A DNA stretch of 36,125 bases. It comes from Welwitschia mirabilis (lineage: Eukaryota). The stretch is taken from assembly GCA_051453625.1 (NCBI GenBank), contig JBOZIK010000001.1:31671451-31707575 (forward strand), in the 5' to 3' direction. The translations under genes were made by a program, and so were the position numbers. A model generated the notes under the pieces. It made no database searches and had not been told where the DNA came from. It was given only the letters and a program-made list of their open reading frames with translations. Below are positions 8,780 to 35,900 of this stretch, one piece after another; the first letter of the stretch is position 1; each line of letters begins with the position of its first letter.

Positions 8780-11340
8780 TTTGTTATTAAATGCTTTCTT
8801 GAACATTGTAGAACCTCATGTGTTGAGGAATACATTTCTACCATCTAATGATCTTATTCATTTATTATTAATAAAATCAAAAAATTAAAAATTTTTAATT
8901 TATTTCATGTTACAATAACTTTATCATAAGTAGTTGCTAATGCATTATTATTCTCTTTTAGATAATCTTCGTACAGTTACTCAACTTTTGCTACCAAGAA
9001 AATTTTATTATTTATTAAAATTACATTCTTCTTCCAAACTTATACCAATAATTATCTTAATATTAAACAAAATTTTTACTATTTACTATATTGATAACTT
9101 TGAAAAACTTAGATTTACTTAAATTCATTATTTAGAATTCTTTTAATTAATGAGCTATTGAAAACTCTTTTCTCTACAGTAGGAAAATTTGTATGAGGTT
9201 GTTCTTAGGCATTTGATACCTAGGAATTTTATTAATTCTTAACATTCCTAGCATTATATACTAGATGTTATGGACATTTAAGATTGAATTGGTCTAATCT
9301 AAGTCATCTAAAATTGGATATTTTGTATGTACAAAAGCTTTTAACACTAGAAAAAAATCTTTAAACATAAAATGCTAAATTTTGTACAAATATTATCTTG
9401 ATCTTTGTTCTTTGCATTTTCACAACCTCTCTAAGTAATTTGAAATGCTTTTGCATGGAATTTTAACCTCTACATAAATTTTTTAAAACTAATTTATTAG
9501 CATTTAAATTAATACTATGATATTTAAGTCAAATGAAGATAGCATTAAAACCTAAAATATGCATTTCTTAATTCTTTCATTATATTATTAAATATCTAGA
9601 TGGATGATACTATTCTTCTTATTAGTCTTCAATAATCAAATTTATAGCTTCTTTGAAAGTTAAAATCTTTAATAAAATAAAAGGTATTTTTAATTAGTAC
9701 TAAAATAGAGTATGTTATTTATAATTATTAATGACTTGTGTTCACCCTAAATAGCTATTTAGAAAGAGGTGGATACATATATAATTCATAGCTATCATAT
9801 TTTATTTCATTAAATTTAAAGAATAACTATCCTTAATTCATATTAAAATTAGATTTATAAAATTATTATGTAATGTAGTTTATCTAGAAAGAAAGAAAAT
9901 GGTAAGTTTAGATTTTTCATTCATTCTTAGTTCATAGATGATATATTCTCATTTTTTAAAGCATCATAAGATTAAATACAAAATATGAAATAATGACTTA
10001 TTAATTTCAAATGAGCCACTATGTTAAAAGTGAATTTTATGAAGAGAAAACTTGTGGATTTAGTATAAAAATATTAATTTAAACAAATGTGCAAATCAGT
10101 TATATTATGACTTGGATTAATTTCCTACAAAATACTTGGAAATGTCTATTTTGTTTAATAGAATGAGTTAAATTCATAAGGAGGAGGTGATTCTTAAAGT
10201 TAAATAATACTTTAATGGATGAAAAGCCAAACTTCTATCTCAAACTGGGATACTTTAACTACTTTAAAGTACCTTTAAAATATACTCATATCTCTTATGT
10301 GCTTTTTTAAGGCCTTATGTATAGTTCTCAAGTACATTAAGAAGGCTAAAAGATAATTATTTTTAAAGTTAGAATAGTAGTAACCTTACATATTTTATCA
10401 TGGAAAAAATTAAATGGAGATAAAATTATTGTAGGTTAAGCTATTAAGAATATTTTAGCTTTAAATATAGATCTGTTCAACAATTTGATTAGACAACTTT
10501 ATAATATTAGTAAACCATGGATCCAAATCATGAAAAAAAATACTTATATAATGATATAAATTTTATAGATTATTTCAAAATTATTCTTAAATCCATCAAG
10601 TGAAGAGATTTTAAAAAAGAAAGAATTGATAATTAAATATTATCAAAGAAGATAAGAAATCATGTAGTGAAAGAATATTATGTTACTATACATACACCTT
10701 AAAAAATCCTTTCTAAAAATGTTTTAAGTGGTATTTACTCCCTAAAAATTGTGTTTTTATTTGTAAAGTTCTATTAAAGAAGATACCCACAAAATCCTAT
10801 TTAGAATAAAGGATAATAATGATTCTCAGTGCATGTAAATTTTCTAATAATTATGAAATAATTGGTTATATTTTTCTTGATTGTACTTATATCAAGAAAT
10901 TTTATGAAACAGTGGAGATTCTTACATGTTTTAAACTTCAAGAAGCATAATTTAGAATGTTCTTGAAAGGTGAAAAGTAAATAGTAATGATGAAAAACAA
11001 TGCTCTTCATGGATACTTTTATTTATAACCCTATGGTATAAGATTTTGAGGGAATACAATTGAAGGAGTTTTTAAATAAAAATAAAATTGAAATAGCTAA
11101 TTTGTCTCTCGTCCTTTAGGAATATAAAAATTTAGTAAGTGTTCAGATAAGAAGTTTAGCCTCTAGTATATTTGGATATCATCTTTTACTAATTCATGAA
11201 ACTAAATTATATAATAGTAATAGTGAGAAATTTCATATTGTAGTACAAATTGAGATAGAACAAAAGAAACAGTGGGAAATTATAGCTATTCTAATTTCAA
11301 ACATAAAAAAGACAGTATAATTCATCTATCTAACTTTTCT
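8780..11340 (+). pseudogene. L1-clade LINE ORF2 remnant, copy 2 (EN?-RT-zf-RVT), internally deleted
   Basis: ILKLDL* (~9840), FIDDIF (~9931, FADD motif), FPTKYL (~10121), G*KAKLLSQTG (~10217), SWKKL (~10398), KPWIQIMK (~10512), KIPTKSYL and zf-RVT-like ACKFSNNYEIIGYIFLDC (~10830-10885). Confidence 0.85.
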
Positions 11341-11385
11341 TAGGACTTTTCTTATTATGAAGATGTTGTAGTTTAATGAAAAAGG

Positions 11386-11610
11386 GGTTTTTAGTTTCTC
11401 ATCAAAACAAAAAGTCTAAATTTTTTTATAATGCATACTAGTTTATATTTACATTTTGAGTTTGTAACTTAGGTATTGTATTATTTTTAAAGTTCTTTAG
11501 GTTTTTTTCCCTTATCAAAACAAGCCTAAATTTCATCTTACTTCATACTACTTTAAATATCCATTTTAAGTTTATAACTTAGGATATTGTATTATTTATA
11601 ATGTTATTTT
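11386..11610. repeat. Two-unit ~120 bp tandem repeat, also present at ~14895-15120
   Basis: Repeated TTTTCTCATCAAAACAAAAAGTCTAAATTT...CATACTA.TTTA.AT...CATTTT.AGTTT.TAACTTAGG.TATTGTATTATTT. Confidence 0.7.
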
Positions 11611-12160
11611 CATTTTATTAATTACCAAGGTTTACTTCTTCATTTAATTATTTAATATATTACATGAAATATTATATGTAATGAAATTAAAATTTATATA
11701 TAATTACTATTAATAATGGGCTTTCAAATAATGATGAATAATAAATATTAGTAATTATAACATAAGAAGTCAAAAATAAGCAAGATACATGAGTATGAGT
11801 TCACCATCTTGAGGAAGAATCACATGTATGATTTGACATGTCTAGATCAATATGAGTTACCCATGGATTTTCATTTAATTAAGAAGCATAATAATCCTAG
11901 TTAATGTTAAAGTTTTCCATTAATTAACTTCTTCATATATTAAAATAAATAAATAAATATGAGTTTAAAAAAAAAGATGGATTATGTCTAACCCTCACTA
12001 AAGGTTTTGAAGTCTTATGTTCAGGATTCAAAATGTTTTGTAAACTTAATCAATACTAANNNNNNNNNNNNNNNNNNNNNNNNNNNNNNNNNNNNNNNNN
12101 NNNNNNNNNNNNNNNNNNNNNNNNNNNNNNNNNNNNNNNNNNNNNNNNNNNNNNNNNNNT

Positions 12161-12246
12161 CATAGAAACTGAGCATTTATCTGTTAGCTTATCTGCAAAA
12201 CAACTCAAAATACCCTATCAAATACACTTAAGTTGGTGTCACAACA
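12161..12246 (-). mobile_element. 5' end of another Athila-like LTR next to a gap
   Basis: Reverse complement TGTTGTGACACCAACTTAAGTGTATTTGATAGGGTATTTTGAGTTG closely matches 5325-5373. Confidence 0.75.
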
Positions 12247-12255
12247 TATATTACC

Positions 12256-14790
12256 TTTGTTATTAAATTCTTGCTTGAACATTGTAGAACCTTATCTGGT
12301 GAGGAACACATTACAACCATCTAATGATATTATTTATTTATTATTAATAAAATAGAATAAATCTAAATTTTATTAATTTATTTCATGTTATAATAACTTT
12401 ATCATATGTAGTTGCTAATGCATTGTTATTATCTTTTAGATAGCCTTTGTATAATTACTTACCTTTAGCTACCAAGAAAATTTTATTATCCATTAAAATT
12501 ATATTATTCTTCTAGAATTCTACCAGTAATTATCTTAATATTAATCAAAGTTTTTAGTACCTAATATATTGATATCTTTAGAAAACTTAGATTTTCTTAA
12601 ATTCATCTTTCAAATTCTTTTTATTCATGAGATACTAAAATCTCTTTCCTTTATGGTAGAAAAATTTGTATGAGGTCTTTCTTAGGAATTTGATATCTAG
12701 GAATTTTATTAATTCTTACCATTCCTAGAATTATATACTAGATGTTCAATACTATGCACATCTAAGATCAAAGTGGTCTAATCTAAGGGAATCTAAAATT
12801 GGATATTATATGTGTACAAAAGCTTGTAACTCTAGAACAATAGCTTTAAACATAAAATGCTAAATTTTATACAAATATTATCTTGATATTTGTTCTTTTT
12901 ATTTTCACAACCTCTATAACTAATTGGAAATGCCTTTGCATGGGATTTTAACCTCTATATAAAATTTTAAAACTAATTTATTAGCATTTAAATTAATACT
13001 ATTATATTTAAATCAAATGAAGAAAGTATTAAAACCTAAAATATGCATTTTTTAATTTTGTGATTATATTATTAAATAACTAGATGAATACTAATATTAT
13101 TATTAATTATGTATTCAATCATTGTATTTATAACTTCTTTGAAAGTTAAAAACTTTAATAAAATAAAAGCGATTTTTAGTTATTACTAAAATATATTATG
13201 CTATTTATAATTATTGATAAGGTCTTGTGTTCACCCTCAATAGATATTAAGAAAGAAGTGGATACATATATAATTCATAGATATCATATTTTATTTCATT
13301 AAAAATAAATAATGAGTATTCTTAATGCATATTAAAATTAAATTTGTAAAATTATTATGTAATATAGTTTATCTAGAAAAATAAAATGGTAAGTTTAGAT
13401 TTTTCATCTATTCTCAGTTCATGGATGATATATTCTAATTTTTCAAAGAATTATAAGATTAAATTAAAATTATGAAATAATGAATTATTAATTTCAAATA
13501 ATCCAGTAGGTTAAAAGTGAATTTTATAAAGAGAGAACGTTATGAATTTAGTATGAAAATGTTAACTTGAATAAGTGTGGGAATTAGTTATATTGTGACT
13601 TGGACTAATTTCCTACAAAATACTTGGGAATGGCTATTTCATTTAATAGAATGAGTTAAATTCATTAGGAGGAGATGATTCTTAAAGTTAAATAATACTT
13701 TAATGGATGAAAAGTAAAACTTGTGTCTCAAACTAGGATGTTTTAACTACTTTAAAGTATCATTAGAATCTACTCATGTCTCTTATGTTCTTTTTTGAGG
13801 TGTTATGTATAGTTTTCAAGTACATTAAGAAGGTTAAAAGATAATTCTTTTAAAAGTTATAAGAGTAGTAACCTTACATATTTTATCATGGAATAAATTA
13901 GATAGAGATAAAAGCATTGGAGGTTAGGCTATTAGGAATCTTTTAGCTTTAAATATGAATCTGTTTAACAATTTTTGATTGGGTAACATTATAATACTAG
14001 TAAACCATGGATCAAAATCATGAAAAAAATAATTATATAATGATATAAAGATTATAAACTATTTTAAAAGTTTTCATAAATCCATCATGTCAAGAAATTT
14101 TTAAAAAATTAAGAATTGATATTTGAACATTATGTGGAGAAGACAAAAAAATGTGTGGTAAAAGAATCTTATGTTACTATACATACACTTAAAAAATATT
14201 TTCTAAAAACTTTTTAAGTGGTATTTACTCCCTAAAAATTTCATTTTTATTTGTAAAGTCCTTTTAAATAAGATAACCAAAAAATCCTATTTAAAATAAA
14301 GAGGAATAATGATTCTTAGTTTATGTACCTTTTCTAATAATTATGAAACAATTGGTTATATTTTTCTTGATTACATGTTTTGAAATTCAATAAACATAAT
14401 TTAGAATTTGCCTGAACAGTGAAAAGTAAGAAGTAATGATGAAAAACAGTTCTCTTCATGGAGACTTCTACTCATAATCCTATGATATAATATTTAGAGG
14501 AAATAAAATTAAAGGAGTTTTTAAACAAAAATAAAATTAAAATATCTCATTGGCCTCTCATCCTTTGGGAATGTAAAAATTTAATAAACATTTAGTTAGG
14601 AATTTTGGCCTCCAATATATTTTGGTATTTTCTTTACTAATGCATGAAACTAAATTAAATAATAGTAATAGTGAGAAATTTCATGTTGTAGTACAAATTG
14701 GGATAGAACAAAAGAAATAGTGGGAAATTATAGCTATTCTAATTTCAATCATAAAAATGATAGTATGATTCATTTATCTACCTTTTTCTA
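12256..14790 (+). pseudogene. L1-clade LINE ORF2 remnant, copy 3
   Basis: Collinear with 8780-11340. SQFMDDIF (~13412), FPTKYLGMAI (~13609), G*KVKLVSQTR (~13705). Confidence 0.85.
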
Positions 14791-16849
14791 GGAGTTTTCT
14801 TTTTAGCCTATCAACTTGATGCTTTGATATGTTTAGTTTGTTAGCTTTATAATCCTATTTCTCATTATGAATATGTTGTGGTTTAATGAAAAAGGAGTTT
14901 TCATTTTCTCATCATAACAAAAAGTCTAAATTTCTTCCTAATCCATACTAATTTAAATTTACATTTTGAGTTTGTAACTTGGGATATTACATTATTTTTA
15001 AAGTTCTTTAGGTTTTCATTTTCTTATCAAAATAAGTCTAAATTTCTTCCTACTACATACTACTTTAAATATCCATTTTAAGTTTATGACTTAGGATATT
15101 ATATTATTTTTAATGTTATTTCAATTTTATTATTCACCAAGGATTACTTATTCATTTAATTGTTAATATATTACATGAAATATTTCATATGCAATGAAAT
15201 TAAAATTCTATATATAATTAATAATTAATTATGATCTTTTAAACAGTGATGAATAATAAATATTACTAATTATAATATAAGAAGTTAAAAATAAGCAATA
15301 TATATGGGCATGGGTTCACCATCTTGAGGAAGAGTCATATGTATAATTTTGACGTGTCTAAATTAGTATGAGTTACCCATGGATTTTCATTTAATTAAGA
15401 AGCATAATAATCCTAGTGAATGTTAAAATTTCCCATGAATTAACTTCTACATATATTAAAATAAATAAATAAATTAATAGTTTAAGAAAAGGTGGATGAT
15501 TCCTAATCCTTATTAAAGGTTTTAAAGTTTTATGTTAGGATTTAGAATATTTTGTAAACTTAGTCAACACTAAAAATTGTGTATCAAGCTTATAGTTATC
15601 CATGAATTAAGTTAAAATAAGATATTAGATATAAATAATTTATTATTAAACATAAGTGGTCCATTAAAAGATAATAAAGTTTTTTTTAAGGGTCAAACTA
15701 CTACAGTATNNNNNNNNNNNNNNNNNNNNNNNNNNNNNNNNNNNNNNNNNNNNNNNNNNNNNNNNNNNNNNNNNNNNNNNNNNNNNNNNNNNNNNNNNNN
15801 NNNNNNNNNATAATTTATTATTGAACATAAGTGATCTATTAAAAGGCAATAACCTTTTTTGTAAGAGTCAAACTAGTATATTATTTTCAACAAATAAGTT
15901 TTAAATGATATAATAAACACACATTTAAGCATTGTAATAAATAAATGTCATGCAAAATTTAGAATGTAATATCATTTTGCAATATTAGAAAGCTAATTGT
16001 TCATTAAAATAAACTTTTAAGAAAATGACTATTTAATACATGAATTGAGAGGAAATTATTGTAAGTTAAACAAAATTTTCTAACAATATCTAAGAATATC
16101 AAGTACATTACAAATTACAGGAATACGAAAAGTAAAACCTATAGTTAAACAATACAAAGAGGACAACTTTGTGCTACCTTTCTGATTCTAGACTTTATGT
16201 ATCTGGAGCACTACACCAATTTGAAATTTTAGTAATGCATACTTTATAATAGGAGATGCAGGAGTCTTTCATAGAAATCGACCACTTTTTATAGCCTTTT
16301 TTACACAATGAATTTGGAACTTAACACTTAACAAAACCCTTCAAATCTTTTTTCTTAGGAAGGAAGATGTAGTAGAGGTCTTGAAGAAGACAAAATTCTT
16401 GCAACTTTAATGTGAAAAAAAAGGCATAAAAAAATGGAAACCATAAGATAAAACTCAATTAAAATTACAACGTTTCTTATAATGTAATGTACTAAGATGG
16501 AATCCTCTTGATTAAAGCTAGAATTTGTAAGAGAAAAATGTTTTAGATGTTAGTTGTAGAGGCTCTAAACTAGAACCACCACTACTTGCAATTTTTGTTT
16601 AGATATTCTATTGTTTTTTATATAATGGCTCTAGAATTAGACAATGTTAGGATTTTTCTTCTTAAGAATAAAAATGCATAGAAGTTGAACTAGAAGTTGA
16701 AATTAATGCCTCAATGTTGAATCCCCTATGTATAAGAAAAAAGGAACTCAGGAAGAGAAATGGGATCTAATGGAAAAGGAGAAGTTTTTAATGCAACTTA
16801 ACATTTATTTAAAAGATCCTTAAATAAGGTTGCAACAATAACTAATTTT

Positions 16850-20322: not shown

Positions 20323-21763
20323 CGTTGTGATGCCAAATTGTGTGTTTTTTATGGGTTATATTGAGTAGTTTCAAAGGACATTTAGACAAGTTTAAGAATA
20401 AATTAACAGTTATTGAGAGTTAAGAAGAGAATCATGAAAATGCACAAATACCTATAATTTTAAAGGAATTTTGGATAAATTATAATACTTCACATTTTGA
20501 GGAAGAATTAATGAGCTCTAAGGTCAATTTAATTTAATAAAGATATTTAAGAATGCTATTGTCCTTGNNNNNNNNNNNNNNNNNNNNNNNNNNNNNNNNN
20601 NNNNNNNNNNNNNNNNNNNNNNNNNNNNNNNNNNNNNNNNNNNNNNNNNNNNNNNNNNNNNNNNNNNAAATACCTATAATTTTGAAGGCATTTTGGATAA
20701 ATTATAATACTTCACATTTTGAGAAATAATTAATGAGCTCTAAGGTCAATTTAATTTAATAAAGATCTTTAAGAATGCTATTGTCCTTGTCATCATCTGG
20801 AGGACATACTAGGACAATACCACTTACATGATGACTAGGATGCTAACTAGACTAATATAAAGGATAAAAATAGAACTCTGTTAATATGGCATCATCCCTA
20901 CCATCGTTTATATGATAATTCAAATGACCATCTAATTTTAGTGAATTTATCAAACTCCACCAAAATTCTGCAATGTGTCATGCACTTTTTTCTATAGTTG
21001 TTATGGTTTTGCTTATGCTTGTTAGTCTTTTTTATTTGTTAGTCTATCTTTGTTAATAAATATTGAATTAACCCTTGACTTAGATCATCTTCATTTACAC
21101 TAGAAATTATCATGACAGAGATTGAAGGGCCAGAGATCCATCCTTATAGTTGTAAGGAAACATCTTCTTTGGTGTTATGTGGAACTTCCTTCATTTAAAT
21201 GCTGCTACTTTGTAATGAGATGTTGGCTTGATTTTTAAGAAAATATTCTTTAGTTTTTATGTGCATCTCCCTTATAGTTTATGTTTCTTCTAATTTTTGT
21301 AACAACTTCTTTATTAATATATATCATGAGTGCAACCTTTATTAAGGTTGAAATCATTAATTTAGAATCTTGCATTGCATTTTATATTTCATTGGATATT
21401 TTCATATTTTTTCCCATGCACTTGGTAACTTATGTTGATTTTGATTAGAAACAGTTTTATTGATTGATCTAGATTATGCAGGGATGATTTTGGTGATAAA
21501 GATTTAATAGTCAGATAGATATTGCATTTAGGATAGTTACATTTGCATTTGCATTACATGTTTATTTTTCTTAGATTGTTGATTTTCACTCTTGAATCTT
21601 TATTTTATGAAAAGTAGTTCTCTATCTTCAAGCATAGTTCCTTCAATGGATTATGACATTCAGATCAACTCCCATCTATATTAGTGTGTTGTGTTTGTAA
21701 AAATATTTGTGATTGATAGGATTCTACTATGGATGTAATGCTGCATAAATATGTAGAACAACA
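20323..21763 (+). mobile_element. 5' LTR of an Athila-like Ty3/gypsy element (~1.2 kb after removing the gap-flanking overlap)
   Basis: Starts cGTTGTGATGCC exactly where the copia integrase is cut, ends ...GAACAACA, is followed by a PBS, and is homologous to solo LTR 3495-5373. Confidence 0.85.
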
Positions 21764-21781: not shown

Positions 21782-22150
21782 AAAAGGATGCAAGAAGATT
21801 AAGGATTGTCATTATCTAGATAAGTGCTTTGAATATTGATTCAGGTATTTTTTTTGTGGTAGCATTGTATTTTTACTGTAAATACTTTAGTTTTTCTTTT
21901 TGCATTTTTTTCATGTTTTTATTTTTCAATCTACATTTTTTTGAATTCTATCGTCTTGTTGGTCATTCCCGTGAAATTACTAGATGATAGTCTAGGATTA
22001 TGATTTTCTATACTTATAGGTTTATTTTTAGTTTTCCACCATGTAATAAGTTAATTTCATCTCCTCTATCATCTGGATGGGACTAGAAGATGATTGATAT
22101 TGTGTTTTTATTCTAGTTTTCAGTTTTTTCTATTTTCTATTTTCTATTTT

Positions 22151-22556
22151 TATAATGTTTCAAAATCATTAATTAAATAATGATGTATGTTAAACACTAA
22201 TGAAACATGGTTAACAAGAGAAATAAATGGATGTAACTCAAATATGTAAAGATGTGTTTCTTTATTATGTAATATAAGCCTATGGAATTAGGTGAAGGTG
22301 GATAGACTGGGTGGATGTAATCGACAACAAACTTGCCTAATCCTTAAGGATTCCATGAGGGAGACTAAGGTCTTAGTCCATGTCTTTACCTATAACTACT
22401 AGTCCAAGTATTTTTACTAATGATGTAAAATTTAATCTAATGCTATCAATAATAAAATCCTTATTCTCTCTCAATTATTCCTATGAATCCTAGCATAATA
22501 TTTTAAATGTTTCTTTTTATGTAAGTAATCTAAAAATAGTAAAATAAAACATTAAA
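22151..22556 (+). repeat. Chromovirus 5' LTR (406 bp)
   Basis: TATAAT...CATTAAA (degraded TGTAA...TTACA); collinear with 32069-32485. Confidence 0.9.
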
Positions 22557-22558
22557 TT

Positions 22559-22571
22559 TGGTATTAGAGCC
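22559..22571 (+). promoter_or_regulatory. Primer binding site, initiator tRNA-Met
   Basis: TGGTATTAGAGCC (canonical TGGTATCAGAGC), 2 nt after the LTR end. Confidence 0.9.
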
Positions 22572-23289
22572 AACAACAAGTGGTAAACTGCTACTTTAGG
22601 AAAAACAAGAAAGAAACTAGTTTATAAATTAAATATCCCAAGGCCAAATAGTACATCAAAGAACAGAAATATGATGATCAGATGAAATAAGGTGCCAGTG
22701 AAAATAGGGCTCANNNNNNNNNNNNNNNNNNNNNNNNNNNNNNNNNNNNNNNNNNNNNNNNNNNNNNNNNNNNNNNNNNNNNNNNNNNNNNNNNNNNNNN
22801 NNNNNNNNNNNNNNNNNNNNNNNNNNNNNNNNNNNNNNNNNNNNNNNNNNNNNNNNNNNNNNNNNNNNNNNNNNNNNNNNNNNNNNNNNNNNNNNNNNNN
22901 NNNNNNNNNNNNNNNNNNNNNNNNNNNNNNNNNNNNNNNNNNNNNNNNNNNNNNNNNNNNNNNNNNNNNNNNNNNNNNNNNNNNNNNNNNNNNNNNNNNN
23001 NNNNNNNNNNNNNNNNNNNNNNNNNNNNTTATAAATTGAATATCCCAAGGCCAAATAGTACATCAAAGAACAGAAATATGATGATCAGAGGAAATAAGGT
23101 GCCAGTGAAAATAGGGCTCATGAAACCTTGATAAGGGAAAATCAAACATCACTTCTTAGAAGGAAGGAGATCCTCCACGAAGAAGGTAATAGCATTGTAA
23201 CCCTTCTAGCCTAGGATAGGAGGCTTCATGACACCTAGAACTACTTCCATTCTAATAGGTTGTGTAGGAACTGCAACAGTGCTAAATTA

Positions 23290-25654
23290 AATAAAAGAAG
23301 AAGCCACTATAGAGTCTACCCTTGTAATAGAATACAGCTACTTATAGAGATTTATATGAATCTTATTATAAGTCATAAAAGTCCCCAATAGATATTAATT
23401 TGATATCACCCCATCATGTATAATAAATTGATGTCCTCAATAGTAATGGCCAGATGATCCACATAAGTCTAAATCATCCTCTCCTTCTTTTCTAGTCAAG
23501 AAGATAAGGCAGTCTAATTTTATTCTATTACAGTCATACGTGAAGCATTTGACCATGATTTCTTCTCTGACAAATGCATGTTCTCCACCTCATTCTCTAG
23601 CATTTAAAGGAAATCACTTATGAACTCCCACTCTTCAATCTCATGATGGATCATGTAGTAAAATAACTCCATCATATCAATTACATCATAAAAATCTAGG
23701 AGTGGAATAGGCCATTATCATTATGGAGTATAATAGAAACTAAAATGAGTAGAATGGGTGTGTTCGAAGCCTCGTGGTACATCTACTACCTTGGATCAAT
23801 GATGGATGTAGATATCATCTAACTGTAAAGGATGCATGACCTATGCATNNNNNNNNNNNNNNNNNNNNNNNNNNNNNNNNNNNNNNNNNNNNNNNNNNNN
23901 NNNNNNNNNNNNNNNNNNNNNNNNNNNNNNNNNNNNNNNNNNNNNNNNAATGGCTGTGTTCGAAGCCTCGTGGTACATCTACTATCTTGGATCAATGATA
24001 GGTGTAGATGTCATCTAACTATGAAGGATGCATAACCTGTGCATGCAAAAGACTAGAAAGGGACTAGTAATCTAGTGTTTGATCTATCAACTCCTTAACC
24101 TTAAGGTATAAGATCTTCATCGTTGAGAGAGTTGATCAATGTGATAAGATACTTGGCCTTGTTCATTTACAATTGATTATGGAGCTACATGTGGATGGTG
24201 AGAAGGCTATAAAAAAGGGCAAGTAATAGGAGGACTTTGATATGATGGCTAAAAATAGAAGGATGGAATAGGACATATCCTCATAATCCATTAAATTATT
24301 AAAATCATTAAGTACCTTTTCCCCTTGAGATTTGGAAGGGAATAATAAATTCATGAAGGGGCCAGTGGAGGGATTAGAAGAAAAAGTTCCACTTACAATG
24401 ATGCACTCCTCTCTTAGCTGCCAAAGAAAGAGCTTCTTTGGAGGCCATAGGATAAAATCCATGTCCTCCTTGACCAAAGTTTCTACACGAGGAACGTAAA
24501 ATAAAACAAGAAAATGACTATGTCAAGAAGAAGAAGAAGAAGAAGAAGAAGAAGAAGAAGAAGAAAAGAGAAAAGAGATTATAATAGATAATACCCCACA
24601 GGGCCAATGTCACCAAGAAGAGTTAAGGGATGCATTCTCTTCATCTTTTGATTTAAGACATAAGGCAATTCACTAGATCTTTGTTCGATTTTTGGCAGAA
24701 GAATGATGATATCTTGAAGACTCATCTGCAAAAAACCAAATTCCAAAAACCAGATTTATCAAAAATATACTTAACAATAAGATCCTTCAGCAAAATCCAT
24801 ACCTTAGATGGAATAGAAAAAGCACCTTGAGATGTTTCTGTAGGATCATAACTCCCAGAGCCTTTATCCTTCATAGATGAAGAAGAATGAGAATGTGATA
24901 AAAACTGAGTAGGACTTTCATAAGAAAATAAAACATAAGAGGAATCTATAAAAATAGCCTTAAATGGTTGTAGACCCCTTAAACCTATTGAAGCAAAATA
25001 TAAATCTAATAAGATACTACCACAGAAACACTTTTTCCTATCCTCATTCCTCTTCAAGTGGGTCAACTGGGAAAGAGTAGAAGAACAAATAACTAAGGCC
25101 CAATTAAAAGAAACTCCACTAATCAGAAAGAAAAAAAAGTAAATTATGTAGGTAGAAATATCACTTACCTAATCATGAAGGAAGATCCTATCAATAGTAA
25201 GCTCCCCATAAGCTACAGAATATGGAGTGGTAAAATTGACTGTAGAGATCCTATGGCAATATGTATCCACCTCCCACACATATTCAAAATCATCCAAGTA
25301 ATTGGATAAGAAGTAATAAAAGTCCTCATCAGAATGAGAGACTTTAGGAGGCATATGATCATCTTCACTTATCTTAAAGACTACCTAGATGCTCTCCTCT
25401 AAAATTTGAATTAAACCATGATAGAGATGGATAATGGTATTAGTATTTGGATTAAAGGAGGAATATAATAAATCTGGGATGAAAAGAGCAATGGAATGAC
25501 AAAGACAAAAAGATGAAAAACCAAAAAGATCTAAGAGATTATAGGAGAAGATCTAAGAGAACCCTTTCTCTAAAGTGTGTTGTTGTATTTCTAACTCTAT
25601 AGAGTTGACATTGATAGAATGCCAAGAAATTGCAAGGTAAAGTTTGGAAGCCAT
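23290..25654 (-). pseudogene. Antisense accessory gene in the chromovirus 5' region: PMD/Transposase_32-like N-terminus, Ser-rich linker, coiled-coil-like C-terminus; probable intron 24726-24825
   Basis: ATG at 25654 is in frame with track ORFs 25169-25354 and 24722-25066. Removing 24825-24726 (AG|GTGCTT...TTTTTTGCAG|) joins it in frame to ORF 24163-24477 and on to ~23290. Internal stops are consistent with CAA/CAG/CGA deamination. Confidence 0.7.
24525..24563. repeat. (AAG)13 microsatellite, reading as poly-Ser in the antisense gene frame
   Basis: Counted directly. Confidence 0.95.
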
Positions 25655-27686
25655 ACTTTAACCAGAAGCAGACATGTATTTACAAATGATAAAGGGGAAT
25701 TATATTAATAGGTAAAAATAGGTTGTGGAAGGACCTGCATAAAAAATAAGAAAAGTAAAAAAAAAACATTAAAATAAAAGGAAACAGAAAAGTAAAAATA
25801 TCAAAGAAAGAGGTAAGTAAAAGAATAAATAAAAGAATTACCAATTTAACTATGGAGGCACATGATAAAAGAAGTAAGAAATGAGGGGACCATGAAGATA
25901 TTTGTAGTGTTGGACCAGGGTTTAACCTAACCCTAAAATAATAGTTAACTATAGTTAATTAAACCTTAGTTAAATACAAATANNNNNNNNNNNNNNNNNN
26001 NNNNNNNNNNNNNNNNNNNNNNNNNNNNNNNNNNNNNNNNNNNNNNNNNNNNNNNNNNNNNNNNNNNNNNNNNNNNNNNNNNAACCAAAACGATCTAAGA
26101 GATTAGAGGAGAAGATCTAAGATAATCCTTTCTCTAAAGTGTGTTGTTGTATTTCCAACTCTATAGAGTTGACATTAATAGAATGTCAAGAAATTGCAAG
26201 GTAAAGTTTGGAAGCCATACTTTAACCAGAAGCAGACATGCATTTACAAATGATGGAGGGGAATTATATTAATAGGTAAAAATAGGTTGTGAAAGGACCT
26301 ACATAAAAAATAAGAAAAGGAAAAAAAAACATTAAAATAAAAGGAAACGGAAAAATAAAAATATCAAAGAAAGAGGTAAGTAAAAGAATAAATAAAAGAA
26401 TTGCCAATTTAACTATGGAGGCACATGATAAAAGAAGTAAGAAATGAGGGGACCATGAAGATATTTGTAGTTCTAGACCAGGGTTTAACCTAACCCTAAA
26501 ATAATAGTTAACTATAGTTAACTAAACCTTAGTTAAATACAAATAACTAACTCCGATTAACTATAAAAAAATCAAGACCGTGAACTTTGTGAACTGAAGG
26601 CCGATGTTGCACTTCCATATGGCTAACATTACACTTCAAAGATCAATGTCATACTTACCCTCCATAGGCGTAGATTTGTCATTTTTCGAAATAAATCACC
26701 TTTTCTACCTACTTGTCTAAGGAATCTCGATGTAGCATTTGGATGGCTGAGGTCGCACTTNNNNNNNNNNNNNNNNNNNNNNNNNNNNNNNNNNNNNNNN
26801 NNNNNNNNNNNNNNNNNNNNNNNNNNNNNNNNNNNNNNNNNNNNNNNNNNNNNNNNNNNNNNNNNNNNNNNNNNNNNNNNNNNNNNNNNNNNNNNNNNNN
26901 NNNNNNNNNNNNNNNNNNNNNNNNNNNNNNNNNNNNNNNNNNNNNNNNNNNNNNNNNNNNNNNNNNNNNNNNNNNNNNNNNNNNNNNNNNNNNNNNNNNN
27001 NNNNNNNNNNNNNNNNNNNNNNNNNNNNNNNNNNNNNNNNNNNNNNNNNNNNNNNNNNNNNNNNNNNNNNNNNNNNNNNNNNNNNNNNNNNNNNNNNNNN
27101 NNNNNNNNNNNNNNNNNNNNNNNNNNNNNNNNNNNNNNNNNNNNNNNNNNNNNNNNNNNNNNNNNNNNNNNNNNNNCATTTGTAGTTGGCCACATTAGCA
27201 AGTTTATTATGATAACTACTAGAAACTATTTTCTCTAATCATTTTCTTAACTACCAGGTGGTTGTAAGTCCCCAGCTATCATCTATAATACTATAAAAAG
27301 ATAGCACCATTAGAGGAAAGTATAAGAAGAGTAAGAGAACACTTGTAGAATAAGGTAGAGGCATATGAGTTCAAGAGGACGTCAAACCCACTGGTGTATC
27401 ATGGAACATAGGGTTAATGAGTGAATCAATGCACTAGAAGATTACATTGATAGTATCCACTTATAAAATGCATAGAAAACTAATAGAATTGATATCCTTA
27501 TTTCTCTCTTAAAGAAAGACCTATAGAACATAATCTAAGGACATCTCAAGAACCATCATCTACATTAGGAGAACATACTTCTATAGTCGATATTAACCTT
27601 TAAAACATTCAAATCATGTTATTAAACATGGAGGCCAATCTTTAATCTCTTCTGACAAATAGAACCAATTATTCTAACATTAAACA

Positions 27687-30600
27687 ATGGGAAAAAGAAT
27701 AAATTGTAAAAGATGATACATTTAAAAACCTATAAAGGTAAGGCTAAAATAAGTGAAGAAGCTATATCATGGACCCCATAATTGAAAAACTATTTTAAAC
27801 TTCAAAATATACATCCAAAAAGATATTATGTATATGTTGCTACATTTCTTAAAGGAAAGACACAAGAATAGTGGTTTAGGTATCAATAAAAATACCTACA
27901 CAGGATAGCATGGGATACTTTTATTAAAGAGTTTAAAATGAAGTTCATTCCAGAAGATTTTATTGTAGGTCAAATGGTGGAATTTTAATGCCTATGCCTA
28001 TTAGATGAATATTATTTAGAATTTTAACACCTTATAAAGTACTAAAAGAATTTTTCAGAAAAGAAGCTAATTAATAGTTTTATTGGAACTTTGCCACCCA
28101 CACTTCAAAGTCTTNNNNNNNNNNNNNNNNNNNNNNNNNNNNNNNNNNNNNNNNNNNNNNNNNNNNNNNNNNNNNNNNNNNNNNNNNNNNNNNNNNNNNN
28201 NNNNNNNNNNNNNNNNNNNNNNNNNNNNNNNNNNNNNNNNNNNNNNNNNNNNNNNNNNNNNNNNNNNNNNNNNNNNNNNNNNNNNNNNNNNNNNNNNNNN
28301 NNNNNNNNNNNNNNNNNNNNNNNNNNNNNNNNNNNNNNNNNNNNNNNNNNNNNNNNNNNNNNNNNNNNNNNNNNNNNNNNNNNNNNNNNNNNNNNNNNNN
28401 NNNNNNNNNNNNNNNNNNNNNNNNNNNNNNNNNNNNNNNNNNNNNNNNNNNNNNNNNNNNNNNNNNNNNNNNNNNNNNNNNNNNNNNNNNNNNNNNNNNN
28501 NNNNNNNNNNNNNNNNNNNTTCATCATCTTTATTTTACAAATTAAATATCATTCTTTTCAAAGAATAAGTCTACCATAAGAGTTGTAGAGGGTAATGTTC
28601 TGACACAAGATGGGACTACTACTCTTATTACTTTTACCATTTATAACTTATAGTTTAGGGATAAGTTTTATGTCTTTCAAATTTGAGAATACCATGATAT
28701 TCTAAGAATCCCTTTCTTAGTTAAATTTAATGTTTAAATTAACTTTCACCAAAGAACCCTATAGCTATCTCATTAATTTAAAGAACAAATTTTTATAAGG
28801 GAGGGAAAGAGTAAGGAAATATTTTTAACCTCATCCAAATAAACAACAAAAGCTATAAAAAAAGAAATAGGAGTTTATTACTTTAGTACAGGTAGAAGAT
28901 CATAAAGAAGATCCTTTTATACTAGAAGAACTAAAGGAACTTTCAAATGTATTTAAGGATTAAAAAGTACTACCATCCCAGATAAAATTATAACATGTCA
29001 TAGATTTAATCTCTAAAGTGCAGTCAATAGCCAGAGCACCTTACTGTTTCTCAGTAGTAGAACTAAGAAAACTGAAGTTATAGATCAAACAACTATTATT
29101 GAAAGGAAAGATTCACGTAATGTATTATCATGGAGGGAACCAATGTTATTTATTAAGAAAAATGATGGTACCTTGTGGCTCTGCATTGACTATAGATAAC
29201 TTAATAAAGTAATCATTAAGAACATATACTCACTACCATAGATGGATGACCAATTGGATCAACTGCAAAAAGCCAAGTACTTCTTAAATACCAATTAAAA
29301 ATTTGACTATCATCAAATCTGCATCAAGGATGAATACATCTACAAGGTTGCTTTTAAAATAAGATATAGATATTATGAATTTACAATAATACCTTTTGGT
29401 TTGAAAAAAGCATCAATCAATTTTATGAGTTTAATGAATGATTTTTTTTAACTATACTTGGATAAATTTATGGATTTTTTTTAACTATACTTGGATAAAT
29501 TTATGGTTTTAATTTTAGATGATATTCTAATATGTTCTAAAAAACAGGATGAACATGTCACAGATTTGAAGAAAGTTCTATAGGCTCTTTTGAAGCATAA
29601 ATTCAAAACAAAATTAAGCAAATGGAAGTTATTCTAGATAAAAATTAGTTATCTTGGATATATCATCTCTAATAAAGGAATTACACTAGACTCAGCTGAA
29701 GTACAAGTCATAAGGAAATGGCTAGAATTAAAAGATACCACTCAAGTATGAAGTTTCTTAGGATTGGATAGCTTTTATTAAAAATTTATTCTAGGATTTT
29801 TTCAACTTGTAGCACCATTAATAGGCTTGACTAAAGTAATAAATACTTTCCACTTTAATGACAAATGAAAGGAGGAATTTCTTAGATTAAAGTTATTACT
29901 TATAATAGCATTGATCCTCAAAATTATATATGTAAACAAACCATTTATAGTTATCAAAATGCTTCTACTCAAGGAATAGGAGTCATACTCAGCCAAGATG
30001 ATCAAGTAATTGCATATGAATCATGAAAACTGAATGAGCATAAGAAGAACTATTCCATACATGACTTGAAACTATTATACATAGTGTATGCCTTGAAAGT
30101 TCAGAGGCATTATCTTCTAGCAAGAAAATTCCTCCTCAAAATAAATCATAAAATCTTAGAGTATTTTTAAAAAAAATCACTTTTAAATATGTGATAAGAG
30201 GAAATGGAGTGAGTTACATATATAATATGACTTCAAGTTGTAGTACACCACTAGAAAAGAGAATAAAGTAGCAAATACTTTGAGTAATATGTGGTGTATC
30301 TTAGCTATCATTGTCACATTCAACTTATTCATCTTTATCAAAAATTCTTTGGTTGATGACCCATACTTCAAGGTTATATACTAATAGGTTCAAGAAGAAA
30401 AGGAATTAGATAAGTACATGATCTCATAGGATGAATTTCTCTTGAAAAGAAGATGATTTTGAATTTCATAAGGCCCATGAAAAAGGAAGCTAATGTTTGA
30501 ACTAAATGAAGATTCTCATGAAGGACATCCAAGATTTATTAAAAATTACTACCAATTGTGGAAATACTACTTTTAATCTATAATGAAGGCAAATTTAGGA

Positions 30601-31880
30601 ATATATCTACAATTGTCCCTTATGCTAATAAATGAAAATCAACTAAGGAAAATCCACTAAACTCCTTCAGCCATTAGGAATACCACAATGGAAATGAAAA
30701 GAAATATCTATGAATTTCATCACTAGGTTACCCCTCACTAATAAATAGCATGATGCAATCTTTATTTATATAGATAGGTTAACCAANNNNNNNNNNNNNN
30801 NNNNNNNNNNNNNNNNNNNNNNNNNNNNNNNNNNNNNNNNNNNNNNNNNNNNNNTAGTATTTAGATTACATGATACACCTTAGGTCATGGTATCCGATCA
30901 AAATCCAAGGTTCTTATCTGAATTTTGATAAAGCCTCTTTCACCACTTAGGTACCAAGCTCATTTTTAGTACTACATATCACCTAGAAATAGATGGTCAA
31001 ACAGAAAGGATAAATCATATATTGGAAGACAATCTAAGGTGCTATGTAGCAGAAAGTCCTAAACAATGGAAGAACTACTTACATTTGGTAGAATTTGCTT
31101 ACAACTAGAAATTTTCTAAACTTCCATTAGCTATTCATCATCTAAAGCAATGTATGGAAGAATCTATTTTACACCTATTACATGGTCNNNNNNNNNNNNN
31201 NNNNNNNNNNNNNNNNNNNNNNNNNNNNNNNNNNNNNNNNNNNNNNNNNNNNNNNNNNNNNNNNNNNNNNNNNNNNNNNNNNNNNNNTGGAAGAATCTAT
31301 TTTACACCTATTACATGGTCAGATCCTTTATAAAGATCAAGAAAGACAACACCTTCATAATTAAAGATGATGAAAGAAGTAATCAATAAAATAAAAAGAT
31401 AGCTATAGGTAGTACAAGATCGATATAAGAAGTATTATGCTCAGAAGCATTAGACCTACATATTCCAGATAGGCAAACAAGTGCTATTAAAAATTAAGTA
31501 GAAAAAAAAACCTTGAAATTGGGAAAGTATAAAAAACTAGTACTATGATTCTACGGTCCCTTTAAGATTAGTGAAAATTTTGGGGATCTAGCATACAAAC
31601 TAAAGCTTCCTTTCCAAATGTCTTGAATACATCCAGTTTTTTGTGTGAGCGCTATGAAACATATCATAAAGATAGAAACCAAGACTACACCTCGAACCAG
31701 TAACATATCATGCTCAAACCCAATTTTACTTTTGTGGTTCAACTAGAAAAAGCCTTAAGTACTGAATCTAGGAAACTAAGAAATAAAATTATAAATGAAG
31801 TACTTATTCAATGGACCCATTGTAATAAGCAAATATGGGAAAATAGGGAGTACATGTAGGAGACCTTTCTTAAACTTTTT
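27687..31880 (+). pseudogene. gag-pol: Degenerate Ty3/gypsy gag-pol with C-terminal chromodomain
   Basis: Gag (FLKGKTQE*W, IAWDTFIKEFKMKFIPE). RT ([51 protein letters not shown] ~29512-29542). RNase H (NYSIHDLKLLYIVYALK). Integrase (WK*KEISMNFITRLP, STTYHLEIDGQTERINHILED, FYGPFKI). Chromodomain (RKLRNKIINEVLIQWTHCNKQIWENREYM*ETFLKLF, 31740-31880). Confidence 0.93.
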
Positions 31881-32055
31881 AATAAAGCCCGATATACCAT
31901 TTTTGTATTGTATTATTAATGTACCTATTAATTAAATGATATCTTCTCTTTTCTGCTATGTCTTGTAGATCATACAAAAAATAATTCAAAGGAGCATGAC
32001 TTCAAAAATAATGCAAATCAAGGAGAGACCATACTTAAGGATGAGCATGATTCCT

Positions 32056-32068
32056 AAGAGGAAGGAAA
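32056..32068 (+). promoter_or_regulatory. Polypurine tract
   Basis: AAGAGGAAGGAAA directly before the 3' LTR. Confidence 0.85.
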
Positions 32069-32485
32069 CGTAATATTCTAAAATCATTAATTGAATAATG
32101 ATATGTGTTAAGTGCTAATTAACTATGATTAAGAAGAGATGTGAATGGATGTGATTCAAATATGTAAAAATGTATCCCTTTATTATGTAACATAAGCTCA
32201 TGCCATTAGGTAGAGCTGAATAGAATGGGTGGATATAACCAATAACAACCTTGGCTAATTCCCAAGGATCCCAGGAGGGAAACTAAGGTCGTAGTTCTTT
32301 TTTTTTTACCTATAACCATTAGTTCAAGGTTATTTTCTAAGAACGTAGAATGTAATCTGCTACTATCAATAATAAAAATCTTATTCTCTCTAAATTGTTC
32401 CTTGTTATTCCTATGAATCCTGACATATTATTTTAAATGTGCTTTTTATGCAAGTAATCTGGAAATAGTAAAATCAGACATTATA
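32069..32485 (+). repeat. Chromovirus 3' LTR (417 bp)
   Basis: CGTAAT...CATTATA; collinear with 22151-22556. Confidence 0.9.
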
Positions 32486-32925
32486 GTTTTCTATTTTTTG
32501 TTTTCTCTATTTTTTTTCTGTTTTCTCTATTTTTTGTTTTCTTTGTTTTCTATTTCCTTTGTTTTCTATTTTCTAATTTTTTTCTATTTTTTATTTTTTT
32601 CATTTTCTGTTTTCTATTTTTGTTTTCTATTTTTTCTATTTTCTTTTTTCGCCTATTTTCTTTGTTTTCTATTTTCTATTTTTGTTTTTTTAACATTTTG
32701 TTTTGTTTGTTTTCTCTCTTTTCTATTTTTTGTTTTCTTCATTTTTTATTTCTTGTTTTCTCTATTTTCTATTTTTATGTTTTTTGTTTTCTCTATTTTC
32801 TTTTTTTTGTTTTCTATTTTTTCTATTTTCTATTTTTTTTGTTTTCTATGTTTTCTATTTTTTTTGTTTTCTCTATTTTCTTTATTTTTGTTCTCTCTAT
32901 TTTTTGTTTCTTGTTTTTATTTTCT
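32486..32925 (+). repeat. Low-complexity TTTTCTA/TTTTTG degenerate tandem array in the Athila-like leader, continuing from 22110-22150
   Basis: The same motif lies on both sides of the chromovirus insertion. It generates spurious Phe-rich ORFs. Confidence 0.85.
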
Positions 32926-35900
32926 TATCATCCCAAATATCATTCGGATGATGACTGAGATGACAAATAGGCAAATATTTTACTAAGCATGCAAGGATTA
33001 GAAAAAAAGGTTTTTTAAAAAGTAGAAACATCTAAGGGAATGAATCCTACTCAAAAAATATTAGAAAAGGCTTGCTTGATGAGGGAAATAAAGGGTATGC
33101 ACATCCCAAGTACATAATTTTTAAGATTTAAAGAAATTTTATTCTACTTTTATGATTCTTAAACCAAATCTTTTAAATAGGAGTAGTGAAAATAATCGGA
33201 TAAGAGAAAAAATCATTTTATTATTTTCTTTTTAACGAGTAGCATCGCTTAATACAAACATGATAAATCCTCTAATTCAAATGCAAACATTACCAAAAAA
33301 TAGATAATTANNNNNNNNNNNNNNNNNNNNNNNNNNNNNNNNNNNNNNNNNNNNNNNNNNNNNNNNNNNNNNNNNNNNNNNNNNNNNNNNNNNNNNNNNN
33401 NNNNNNNNNNAAATCTTTCAAATAGGAGTAGTGAAAATAATTGGATAAGAGAAAAAATCATTTTATTCTTTTCTTTTTAACGAGTAGCATCGCTTAATAC
33501 AAACATGATAGATCCTCTAATTCAAATGCAAACATTACCATAAAATAGATAATTATTAGAATAAGATATAAAAGATAAAAATATTATAACTTATTTTCTA
33601 ATGATGATCTAGGAGTTAAAAACATGAATTTTTCTTGCTCATCCTTCCCATACACTATTAAGAATAATGATAAAAGACTACTTCAATAAATATTAGCTAA
33701 AATTAGAGCTAAAGAAAGAAGGAGAACATATCGAAATTTTGAGAGTAATGGAAATAAAGCAATTAAAGAAATATTTCAAGAACAATTCTGGGAAACTTCG
33801 AATGATGTAGAGATTAAAAATTCTTCCCATTTTCAAACTTCAAATAAAAATGATAGTGATGAATTGCAACATTTTGGGAGTTCCACATTATCTATCAAAA
33901 CATCATATAATCATTTTAGTGAATCCCAAGAAATCTCCCATGAGTTATTATGAATAACAATCATCTCACATCCATTATTATGAAACACAAGATCCATCTA
34001 CCACAAGTTACTACAAAGAAAGAAATAATTCTATAATAAAAATGCTTAAGGAAATGAAAATAAGACAAGATAACACTAATAAGAACTTAGAAAATTTGTC
34101 TGAAATGTTTTTACAAAATTAATTGCAATCTCAAGGTTCTTTCTTTAACATAGAAAATGAAAGTATGGATTAAACTACAACATCAAACTTATTAAGAGAT
34201 GAACAACAAAAGAAAAATAGTAATGATTCAACTCCATTCTTTAACAACAAGGATGAAGATGATTATTTCTTAGATGATGACATTGAAATGTTAAATCATA
34301 TCCTTTGTTTTCAATTACTTTCTAATGAGGATAAAGGATTTCAACCTCTAAAATAAGTTTAACATATGAGATTAAAGGAGAATTTAAGTAATGAAAAAAA
34401 TTGATGAAGAATTTACATTATGAGGGAAGTTGTCCACTCCTATTGTTCTAATGATAGTATATGATGATAGTTAAATAAGGATTACAGTTTAGAATTAACA
34501 AAATTATTCAATAGAGAGGAAGAAGAGTCAACTCATGAAATATCAGAAAATCTTCCATCACACAATGAAAACATTTTTTTTAATAATTTTTTAATGATCT
34601 TTTTAATGAATCCACCTACTTAGAAAATGAAAATTATTCTTAACAAAATAATAATGAGTTTATTAAATAAGAGGGAGGTATTACTAGAGAACATAAAAAG
34701 AGCATTCAACCAAGTAATGATGAAGTCAACAATGAGGAGGAGATGAATAANNNNNNNNNNNNNNNNNNNNNNNNNNNNNNNNNNNNNNNNNNNNNNNNNN
34801 NNNNNNNNNNNNNNNNNNNNNNNNNNNNNNNNNNNNNNNNNNNNNNNNNNNNNNNNNNNNNNNNNNNNNNNNNNNNNNNNNNNNNNNNNNNNNNNNNNNN
34901 NNNNNNNNNNNNNNNNNNNNNNNNNNNNNNNNNNNNNNNNNNNNNNNNNNNNNNNNNNNNNNNNNNNNNNNNNNNNNNNNNNNNNNNNNNNNNNNNNNNN
35001 NNNNNNNNNNNNNNNNNNNNNNNNNNNNNNNNNNNNNNNNNNNNNNNNNNNNNNNNNNNNNNNNNNNNNNNNNNNNNNNNNNNNNNNNNNNNNNNNNNNN
35101 NNNNNNNNNNNNNNNNNNNNNNNNNNNNNNNNNNNNNNNNNNNNNNNNNNNNNNNNNNNNNNNNNNNNNNNNNNNNNNNNNNNNNNNNNNNNNNNNNNNN
35201 NNNNNNNNNNNNNNNNNNNNNNNNNNNNNNNNNNNNNNNNNNNNNNNNNNNNNNNNNNNNNNNNNNNNNNNNNNNNNNNNNNNNNNNNNNNNNNNNNNNN
35301 NNNNNNNNNNNNNNNNNNNNNNNNNNNNNNNNNNNNNNNNNNNNNNNNNNNNNNNNNNNNNNNNNNNNNNNNNNNNNNNNNNNNNNNNNNNNNNNNNNNN
35401 NNNNNNNNNNNNNNNNNNNNNNNNNNNNNNNNNNNNNNNNNNNNNNNNNNNNNNNNNNNNNNNNNNNNNNNNNNNNNNNNNNNNNNNNNNNNNNNNNNNN
35501 NNNNNNNNNNNNNNNNNNNNNNNNNNNNNNNNNNNNNNNNNNNNNNNNNNNNNNNNNNNNNNNNNNNNNNNNNNNNNNNNNNNNNNNNNNNNNNNNNNNN
35601 NNNNNNNNNNNNNNNNNNNNNNNNNNNNNNNNCTTTGAATGAAATAAGCTAACTTAAAGAGTTTACTTATGCTTCTCCATTACTTTCACTTGTACCTTCA
35701 TGCTTCCACATTATCTTGTGATCTTGATAATGATAACCTTTTTCCCTCTCTCCGATTTGAAATTTCAAGAAATTCTTCAAATCACATCTCTCTTCATGAA
35801 TTTAATGAAACACATCATCTTGAGAAATATACTCCAAAAATCTCTCAATCTTTTCTTTCTAAAAATTCATGTGCTANNNAAAGTAACATCTTTTCTCTTT

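Follow-up and report, generated by a model that had tools for sequence, protein, structure and literature searches.

A former protein-coding region of 311 codons, here called ORF-A (ORF, open reading frame), lies antisense to gag-pol in the leader of a Ty3/gypsy retrotransposon of Welwitschia mirabilis, between the element's primer binding site (PBS) and gag. It was found in a stretch of 36,125 nt (GenBank assembly GCA_051453625.1, contig JBOZIK010000001.1, positions 31,671,451 to 31,707,575 of the forward strand), to which we refer as the window; all coordinates below count from its first letter. The window carries one old, dead copy of a Ty3/gypsy (chromovirus-like) family, and ORF-A sits inside the pair of long terminal repeats (LTRs) of this copy. 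Over insertion of a foreign piece we favour the reading that ORF-A was borne by the element itself, as an antisense ORF in the leader of a very high-copy family, and we give it roughly an even chance of being right. As far as sequence comparison reaches, the product is an orphan that falls into no known family.

An initial annotation, made from the letters of the window, had placed at 23290-25654 an antisense gene of 650-700 aa, in a single minus-strand frame that begins with MASKLYLAISW, ends in a heptad-like tail and shows likeness to the plant mobile domain (PMD) and Transposase_32. The start was confirmed, in the frame running from 25654 to 24722, and the antisense gene between PBS and gag held up as a former coding region of 311 codons; the claimed size, the tail and the PMD identity did not.

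Evidence for a decayed coding frame

The frame of ORF-A has four stops in 311 codons, the terminal TGA included, versus 21 and 29 stops in the 310 codons of each of the other two minus-strand frames. The plus-strand frames of the same region have 20, 24 and 30 stops. Composition predicts ∼19 stops for the frame of ORF-A. All three internal stops are TAG (25555-25553, 25387-25385 and 25171-25169), and the longest uninterrupted piece is 148 codons. Among 1000 dinucleotide-preserving shuffles of 24045-25982, none had a 311-codon stretch with three or fewer stops in any frame; the most open stretch of a shuffle contained 11.4 stops on average and 4 at the lowest. Throughout the window ORF-A is the only N-free stretch of 311 codons with no more than six stops.

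Codon-position composition of ORF-A is strongly periodic (chi-square 37-38, p 1.5e-6), at a level reached by none of 500 shuffles when the most open frame of each was scored. Position 2 has A.31, T.35, C.22 and G.12, while frequency of G peaks at position 1; values of this kind are typical for coding strands, and the composition fits the minus strand as the coding one. The plus-strand frame in phase with ORF-A has 20 stops versus 4.6 expected by a decay model; therefore, ORF-A is unlikely to be the shadow of a sense ORF. Given the small number of stops, the outcome of the shuffles and the periodicity, we conclude that ORF-A is a former coding region.

With a neutral decay model scaled to half of the LTR distance (d 0.113), 4.7 new stops are expected in ORF-A and 1.8 in ORF-B, a shorter open stretch downstream; the observed numbers of internal stops are 3 and 0, respectively. 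Judged by this stop count, ORF-A was probably open when this copy integrated. Read through its three stops, ORF-A has the size and place of an additional ORF: at least 250 codons, between PBS and gag, outside gag-pol and free of tandem arrays. Its product is rich in Ser, Leu, Ile and Phe. A TATA-like ATTAATATAA is situated 46-55 nt upstream of the ATGGCT start. We also saw AACCCTAAAA, which resembles the plant telomere-repeat or telo-box motif, as a single occurrence ∼275 nt upstream of the antisense start codon, at 25929-25938 (with a duplicate at 26493-26502).

How far the gene extended beyond ORF-A is less clear-cut than the single frame of the initial annotation had suggested. ORF-B is in a second frame and the tail in a third. 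All three frames have stops in the 200-nt stretch that separates ORF-A from ORF-B and surrounds a (GAA)n microsatellite (the 'Ser/Arg-rich linker' of that annotation). ORF-B is only mildly unusual (an ORF at least that long, 119 codons, turns up in 19 of 1000 shuffles of 24045-24721), and its codon positions show no periodicity (p 0.53). The heptad-like tail, MLENEVENMHLSEKK...LEKKERMI, lies beyond the N gap 23849-23948 and has four stops in ∼50 codons; across 23290-23848 all three minus-strand frames have 11-18 stops per 186 codons, which is chance level, and neither a Pfam family nor periodicity (p 0.12) was detected there.

Two pairs of splice-like signals are present on the minus strand. 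A donor AAG/GTATGG at 24802 (the slash marks the junction) together with an acceptor TTTTTTGCAG/ at 24726 would delimit a 77-nt GT..AG segment and lengthen ORF-A by 48 codons without a change of frame; paired instead with an acceptor at 24418, this donor would fuse ORF-A and ORF-B in frame. We treat these as candidate sites; such pairs are frequent in AT-rich DNA. Another sequence, AG/GTAAGT at 25168, was rejected as a donor removing the third stop, as the TAG sits on the exon side. ORF-B could possibly be a downstream exon of the ORF-A gene. The gene would then have had ∼370-430 codons, with at least 311 in any case; the extension to ∼430 is doubtful. One contig of the DNA sequencing run X1 links 24459 with 24794 and passes over 334 nt with the microsatellite and the end of ORF-A; the sides of this joint happen to match the frames of ORF-B and ORF-A, and the skipped piece may have been replaced rather than deleted.

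Searches for the identity of the protein returned nothing beyond chance. Pfam scans covered every frame of 23029-25982. At E ≤ 10, none of the queries (ORF-A, its uninterrupted pieces and ORF-B) matched PF10536 (PMD) or PF20167 (Transposase_32), and the other frames did not match them at E ≤ 1; PF04195 (Transposase_28) and PF03078 (Athila ORF-1) had no match in the frames of the segment either. The only rows reported were chance-level ones: Spore_III_AE (E 0.013-0.025), TRAP-gamma (0.034), Pox_A30L (0.16) and BA14K (0.25). A phmmer search with ORF-A had no match at E ≤ 0.001 among 1.84 billion protein representatives, a set that includes proteins of plants and other eukaryotes, as shown by the search with pol. 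A word-indexed search of 5.8 billion clusters gave no match to ORF-A among proteins of 171-545 aa and none to ORF-B among longer proteins; in the sequences of the PDB no match to ORF-A was present at E ≤ 10. AlphaFold2, run on the single read-through sequence of ORF-A, yielded no usable fold (mean predicted local distance difference test score, pLDDT, 31.4; predicted template modelling score, pTM, 0.21). The PMD label should not be carried forward for this segment.

Membership in the element and competing explanations

To view the family we used Logan contigs of two DNA runs, with two organism labels, that were placed on 21900-32700 at a threshold of at least 85%. The numbers of records placed were 27,614 and 29,891; the family is, therefore, very abundant. 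The segment is highly repeated as well: in run X1 the summed depth is 384-2338 over 23344-25509, versus 192-2217 over gag-pol and up to 8229 over the LTRs (summed contig depth is no copy number, and 24514-24576 was skipped as a repeat). Variant contigs number 34-106 per position in the segment versus 28-96 in pol.

Several features of the segment are those of the element around it. The plus strand is A-rich across the whole internal region (A.41 and T.26 in ORF-A, A.39 and T.32 in pol), with A and T about equal in the LTRs and flanks. The sense strand of ORF-A is thus T-rich (T.41, A.26), which would be unexpected for an independent gene or transposable element (TE) inserted backwards and would be expected after long residence in antisense orientation. 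CpG is absent from the 933 nt of ORF-A, a depletion similar to that of pol (observed/expected ratio 0.10). As the initial annotation had noted, no separate LTR, terminal inverted repeat (TIR) or target site duplication (TSD) of the segment is visible: within 22555-27400, which includes 931 N in four gaps, the direct repeats are only duplicates of gap flanks, and the inverted repeats are only pairs of 15-20 nt, the two best of them inside those duplicates. From these sequence features we consider it likely, though unproven, that the segment is part of the element family.

Other observations weigh against this. The evidence comes from a single decayed copy in an assembly with gaps; a pattern search followed by tblastn for sibling loci of ORF-A gave 593 candidates in metagenome contigs, 110 in viral contigs and 600 in genome contigs, and none was confirmed. 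Siblings devoid of the segment may exist, as there are 1080 joints and 7507 loose ends of contigs beyond those listed. The frame of ORF-A has 3 internal stops in 310 codons versus 30 in 709 positions of pol in the same copy (Fisher p 0.006), and for pol the neutral model predicts 12.3, a 2.4-fold lower number than observed. Therefore, the segment could be younger than the element, or pol could have been damaged already at the time of insertion. The GC content is 0.33-0.37 in the segment versus 0.29 in gag-pol. In two RNA runs with one organism label (approximately a quarter of each run was read), depth over 22983-25509 was 0 to 0.11; the reads were confined to short stretches, A-rich or LTR-proximal, and 87-97% of the placed reads ran into unlike sequence. 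A search for sequencing runs that contain the sequence listed no RNA run. Homologues of any kind are missing, so there is no independent sign of the protein being made. Finally, the nearest relatives found, those in the cluster of P0001, the polyprotein with which pol is colinear (see below), have 1545-aa polyproteins on contigs of 4876-6693 nt; such compact contigs leave little room for a 3-kb leader, hence the segment is not lineage-wide.

In a rival reading the segment is a nested or captured piece, a fragment of another repeat or of a host gene that landed backwards after integration, or an unrelated abundant repeat, and not a component of the family. We regard this as unlikely, yet still a real contender. 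In its favour, interruptions per codon are about one-quarter as frequent in ORF-A as in pol, and the GC content of the segment differs from that of gag-pol; termini of a nested element could be concealed in the four N gaps between PBS and gag; depth along the segment is uneven, spanning the range given above for X1; the distant relatives are compact; and the minus-strand splice-like signals (24802/24418 and 24802/24726) would suit a captured gene with introns. On the other hand, no LTR, TIR or direct repeat of its own was seen, apart from the gap-flank duplicates; such a piece would have a T-rich sense strand, sharing the strand asymmetry of its host; its CpG is depleted fully, as in sequence of equal age; it resembles no TE or cellular protein family; and the number of stops fits an ORF open at the date of insertion of the element. 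Highly improbable, in our view, is the absence of any gene, with the open frame being a by-product of composition of the T-rich antisense strand or the shadow of a former sense ORF. It is true that the A-poor minus strand (A.26) lowers the frequency of stops to 0.062 per codon, that neither a homologue nor a confident fold was found, that ORF-B and the tail differ little or not at all from chance, and that periodicity, being strand-symmetric, does not alone tell the coding strand. Still, composition-matched shuffles were never as open (0/1000) or as periodic (0/500); the other two minus-strand frames, of equal composition, have many more stops; and stops in the in-phase plus-strand frame are not below chance and exceed the expectation for a decaying ORF.

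A narrower question is whether the gene was a diverged PMD- or Transposase_32-like one, kin to the PMD ORFs of Ogre and MULE elements and to MAIN/MAIL1. We find this decidedly unlikely. What speaks for it is a likeness of motifs: FNPNTNTIIHLYHGLIQILEESI is followed ∼115 residues on by FNWALVICSSTLSQL...CGSILLDLYF, in an order and at a spacing that we take to resemble the two signature blocks of PMD. PMD is also the commonest extra domain in plant gypsy elements, according to excerpts of PMC9289625 and PMC6317226. Against it stand the absence of both profiles from every hmmscan and the lack of any phmmer match in a collection that includes plant proteins. In addition, the PMD ORFs known from Ogre lie 5′ and in sense orientation.

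If the gene was indeed borne by the element, as we favour, it would have been part of the transposing unit and open at the insertion of this copy; neutral decay would have added the three TAG stops afterwards. Its most likely mode of action, taken as analogous to that of the Grande, RIRE2 and Retand antisense ORFs, would be transcription from an internal promoter on the antisense strand. As the gene runs opposite to the genomic RNA, introns, if present, would not be lost on retrotransposition. The product could have been an accessory protein or an antisense RNA that modulated expression or silencing of the element itself; the anti-silencing function proposed in the initial annotation is pure conjecture. 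One may go further and picture a very high-copy chromovirus family, under both organism labels, whose 5′ leader contains a fixed orphan antisense gene, perhaps born de novo on the A-poor strand, perhaps intron-bearing, and open in the lineage of this copy while pol was already being damaged; we think that this full version is rather unlikely. Were it true, an accessory gene, and not only gag-pol, would have been under selection during amplification, and the gene might modulate silencing or expression of the element, serving non-autonomous copies as well.

The host copy and its surroundings

The features considered here are listed in Table 1. The LTR pair, PBS, polypurine tract and gag followed by protease, reverse transcriptase (RT), RNase H and integrase, in this order, are those of Ty3/gypsy elements. 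A global alignment of the two LTRs has 324 identical positions out of 401 aligned (81%), with 51 transitions and 26 transversions (Kimura two-parameter, K2P, distance 0.227). The PBS resembles what we take to be the tRNA-Met type of plant LTR elements. The Pfam matches of pol include RVT_1 (E 7e-9), RT_RNaseH (E 3e-17) and SH3_Tf2-1 (E 2e-12). Pol is colinear with P0001, a 1545-aa polyprotein from a protein collection, and is 52% identical to it in the RT part; tblastn with P0001 gave seven pieces with the 30 in-frame stops mentioned above.

Table 1. Positions of features in the window (read from the sequence where so stated)
Feature	Position	Strand	Description
ORF-A	24722-25654	-	311 codons; three internal TAG stops, terminal TGA
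(GAA)n microsatellite	24525-24566		between ORF-A and ORF-B
ORF-B	24163-24522	-	119 open codons; frame differs from that of ORF-A
'Heptad tail'	23290-23848	-	unsupported as coding
5′ LTR	22153-22554	+	blastn versus 32071-32483: 78% over 414
PBS	22559-22571	+	TGGTATTAGAGCC; read from sequence
gag, decayed	27365-28114	+	ATG at 27365, runs into N gap; Retrotrans_gag E 3e-5, read-through residues 157-242
pol, heavily decayed	28522-31677	+	protease region, RT, RNase H, integrase, SH3; Pfam matches
Chromodomain-like C-terminal tail	31680-31901	+	final 74 codons aligned to residues 1468-1543 of P0001, E 1e-4
Polypurine tract	32056-32070	+	AAGAGGAAGGAAACG; abuts 3′ LTR; read from sequence
3′ LTR	32071-32483	+	pairs with 22153-22554
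Gap-flank duplicate	20446-20567 / 20668-20789
Gap-flank duplicate	22622-22713 / 23029-23120
Gap-flank duplicate	23753-23848 / 23949-24044		N gap 23849-23948
Gap-flank duplicate	25519-25982 / 26083-26545		95% identical; 464 nt; includes ORF-A start and 330 nt upstream
Gap-flank duplicate	33166-33310 / 33411-33555

A chromodomain had been claimed by the initial annotation. The C-terminal tail aligns with the chromodomain-like end of P0001, while Pfam Chromo has no match in 31680-31901 at E ≤ 1. The C-terminus of P0001 has a sub-threshold match to this family (E 2.5e-4, 21.4 bits versus a cut-off of 25.1), and BLASTP of the tail to the clear chromodomain of another protein, P0007, gives E 2.9 only. 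By similarity, the host element is likely, but not proven, to be chromodomain-bearing. The short 0.4-kb LTRs presumably do not point to Tekay in particular.

Location of the segment inside the LTR pair, also claimed, was borne out; the accompanying TSD is unreadable because both flanks of the element are the same TTTTCTA-like T-rich minisatellite, and we rejected the TSD reading. The minisatellite (16-23 nt units, TCTATTTTTTGTTTTC-like) extends over 22094-22150 and 32484-32925, thus embedding the element in an array on both sides, and yields a spurious plus-strand ORF of 189 aa at 32417-32986. Within RT, a tandem duplication of a 33-nt unit at 29440-29510 (2.2 copies, 97% matches) shifts the pol frame. 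Some contigs of the family skip 44 nt at this place (joint 29449>29494); therefore, only this copy, or a subfamily, has the duplication.

The window is AT-rich (GC 0.20-0.35) and contains 17 N gaps. At five or more of these gaps, the 92-464 nt preceding the gap recur right behind it with 91-98% identity. We read the duplicates as a systematic scaffolding artefact, with contig ends left unmerged. Such an artefact inflates apparent lengths and creates false direct repeats: the distance from PBS to gag, 4.8 kb, shrinks to ∼3.2 kb net when the 931 N of four gaps and 652 nt of duplicated flanks are subtracted. The 464-nt repeat 25519-25982/26083-26545 was considered as the LTR pair of a nested element and rejected, because a like duplication before and after the gap is seen at four or more other gaps.

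Elsewhere in the window, an open stretch of 93 aa at 651-932 on the plus strand matches Pol_BBD weakly, below the threshold (E 2e-4); this is probably what remains of the polyprotein of another LTR retrotransposon, which we presume to be Ty1/copia-like. The stretch 5800-15200 holds a 2.2-3.5 kb unit in three to four tandem-like copies, with inter-copy identity of 75-91%, and a 112-nt internal tandem repeat is present within this array at 14897-15121. An inverted pair of ∼800 nt (3549-4358 versus 20952-21718, 68% identity, 16.6 kb apart) may represent two diverged copies of yet another repeat in opposite orientation.

Comparison with extra genes of other retroelements

Plant LTR retrotransposons commonly carry extra genes, most of them orphans with unexplained functions. 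The comparisons that follow draw on excerpts of the papers cited. In plant Ty3/gypsy elements extra ORFs are frequent and highly heterogeneous, with about one-fifth matching a known domain (PMC6317226). Neumann et al. (2019) divided them into 5′ and 3′, forward and reverse classes, the 5′ reverse-oriented class included; in this nomenclature ORF-A would be an eORF-5′R (PMC6317226). It was an overstatement of the initial annotation that a gene 5′ of gag may mark an undescribed family, as the excerpts describe both 5′ extra ORFs (PMC11728184) and the 5′ reverse class (PMC6317226).

Among chromodomain-bearing elements, 5′ extra ORFs are typical of Tekay in sunflower and in Poaceae (RIRE3, RIRE8, Retrosat-2, FRetro3, Sb7) (PMC11728184). 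The likeness is in arrangement: in a chromodomain-bearing Ty3/gypsy element (here, a chromodomain-like one), an extra ORF (∼400 codons in Tekay) follows the 5′ LTR/PBS and precedes gag, with no Pfam domain reported in the excerpts (PMC11728184). According to the same excerpts, the Tekay ORFs of different plant groups share no similarity (PMC11728184). The sunflower ORF is sense to gag-pol, unlike ORF-A; in Tekay group 2 ('Tekay 13-2 5′aORF') it is present as ORF(+) in 500 of 523 copies, whereas ORF-A is known from one copy (PMC11728184). Compared by description, the Tekay proteins are Pro-rich and largely disordered, with nuclear localisation signals, while the product of ORF-A is rich in Ser, Leu, Ile and Phe (PMC11728184). 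Since 5′ extra ORFs of Tekay have already been described, there is nothing new in a chromovirus that carries an additional gene 5′ of gag; only the antisense orientation 5′ of gag looks unusual. Our literature search, with the supplementary tables of PMC6317226 outside its scope, did not turn up any account of a chromovirus with an antisense ORF located between PBS and gag.

Antisense extra ORFs are known from Grande (gene23), RIRE2 and Retand (ORF4, Transposase_28), where they lie between pol and the 3′ LTR, and in the excerpts most of them are without database matches (PMC7264820, PMC11963269). The antisense ORF of Grande has its own internal promoter and a nuclear product; the role proposed for such ORFs is regulation of the element (PMC7264820, PMC11963269). 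Like these ORFs, ORF-A is antisense to gag-pol, inside the LTR pair and without a database match; unlike ORF-A, they lie 3′ of pol and belong to the non-chromovirus Tat lineage (PMC7264820, PMC11963269). The Transposase_28 domain of Retand ORF4 has no counterpart in any frame here. Ogre elements, of which 57% carry PF10536, are plant Ty3/gypsy elements that, like the present copy, have an extra ORF upstream of gag (PMC6317226); they differ in being non-chromoviruses and in the PF10536 match that is absent here.

An analogy, and only that, may be drawn to HBZ of HTLV-1 and ASP of HIV-1, genes opposite to gag-pol on the A-poor strand, as is the case here (PMC7264820, PMC11963269). Unlike ORF-A, these genes are located at the 3′ end or overlap env, and they belong to animal retroviruses (PMC7264820, PMC11963269).

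With one decayed copy in a gapped assembly, ORF-A is a lead for TE annotators of the species rather than a result. Placed in the 5′ leader of a chromovirus-like family, an antisense gene would be a new arrangement beside those already known, in which antisense genes lie 3′ of pol (Tat) and 5′ genes are in sense orientation (Tekay). As its sense strand is the A-poor strand of the element, ORF-A would also be a candidate for gene birth on the antisense strand of a retroelement.

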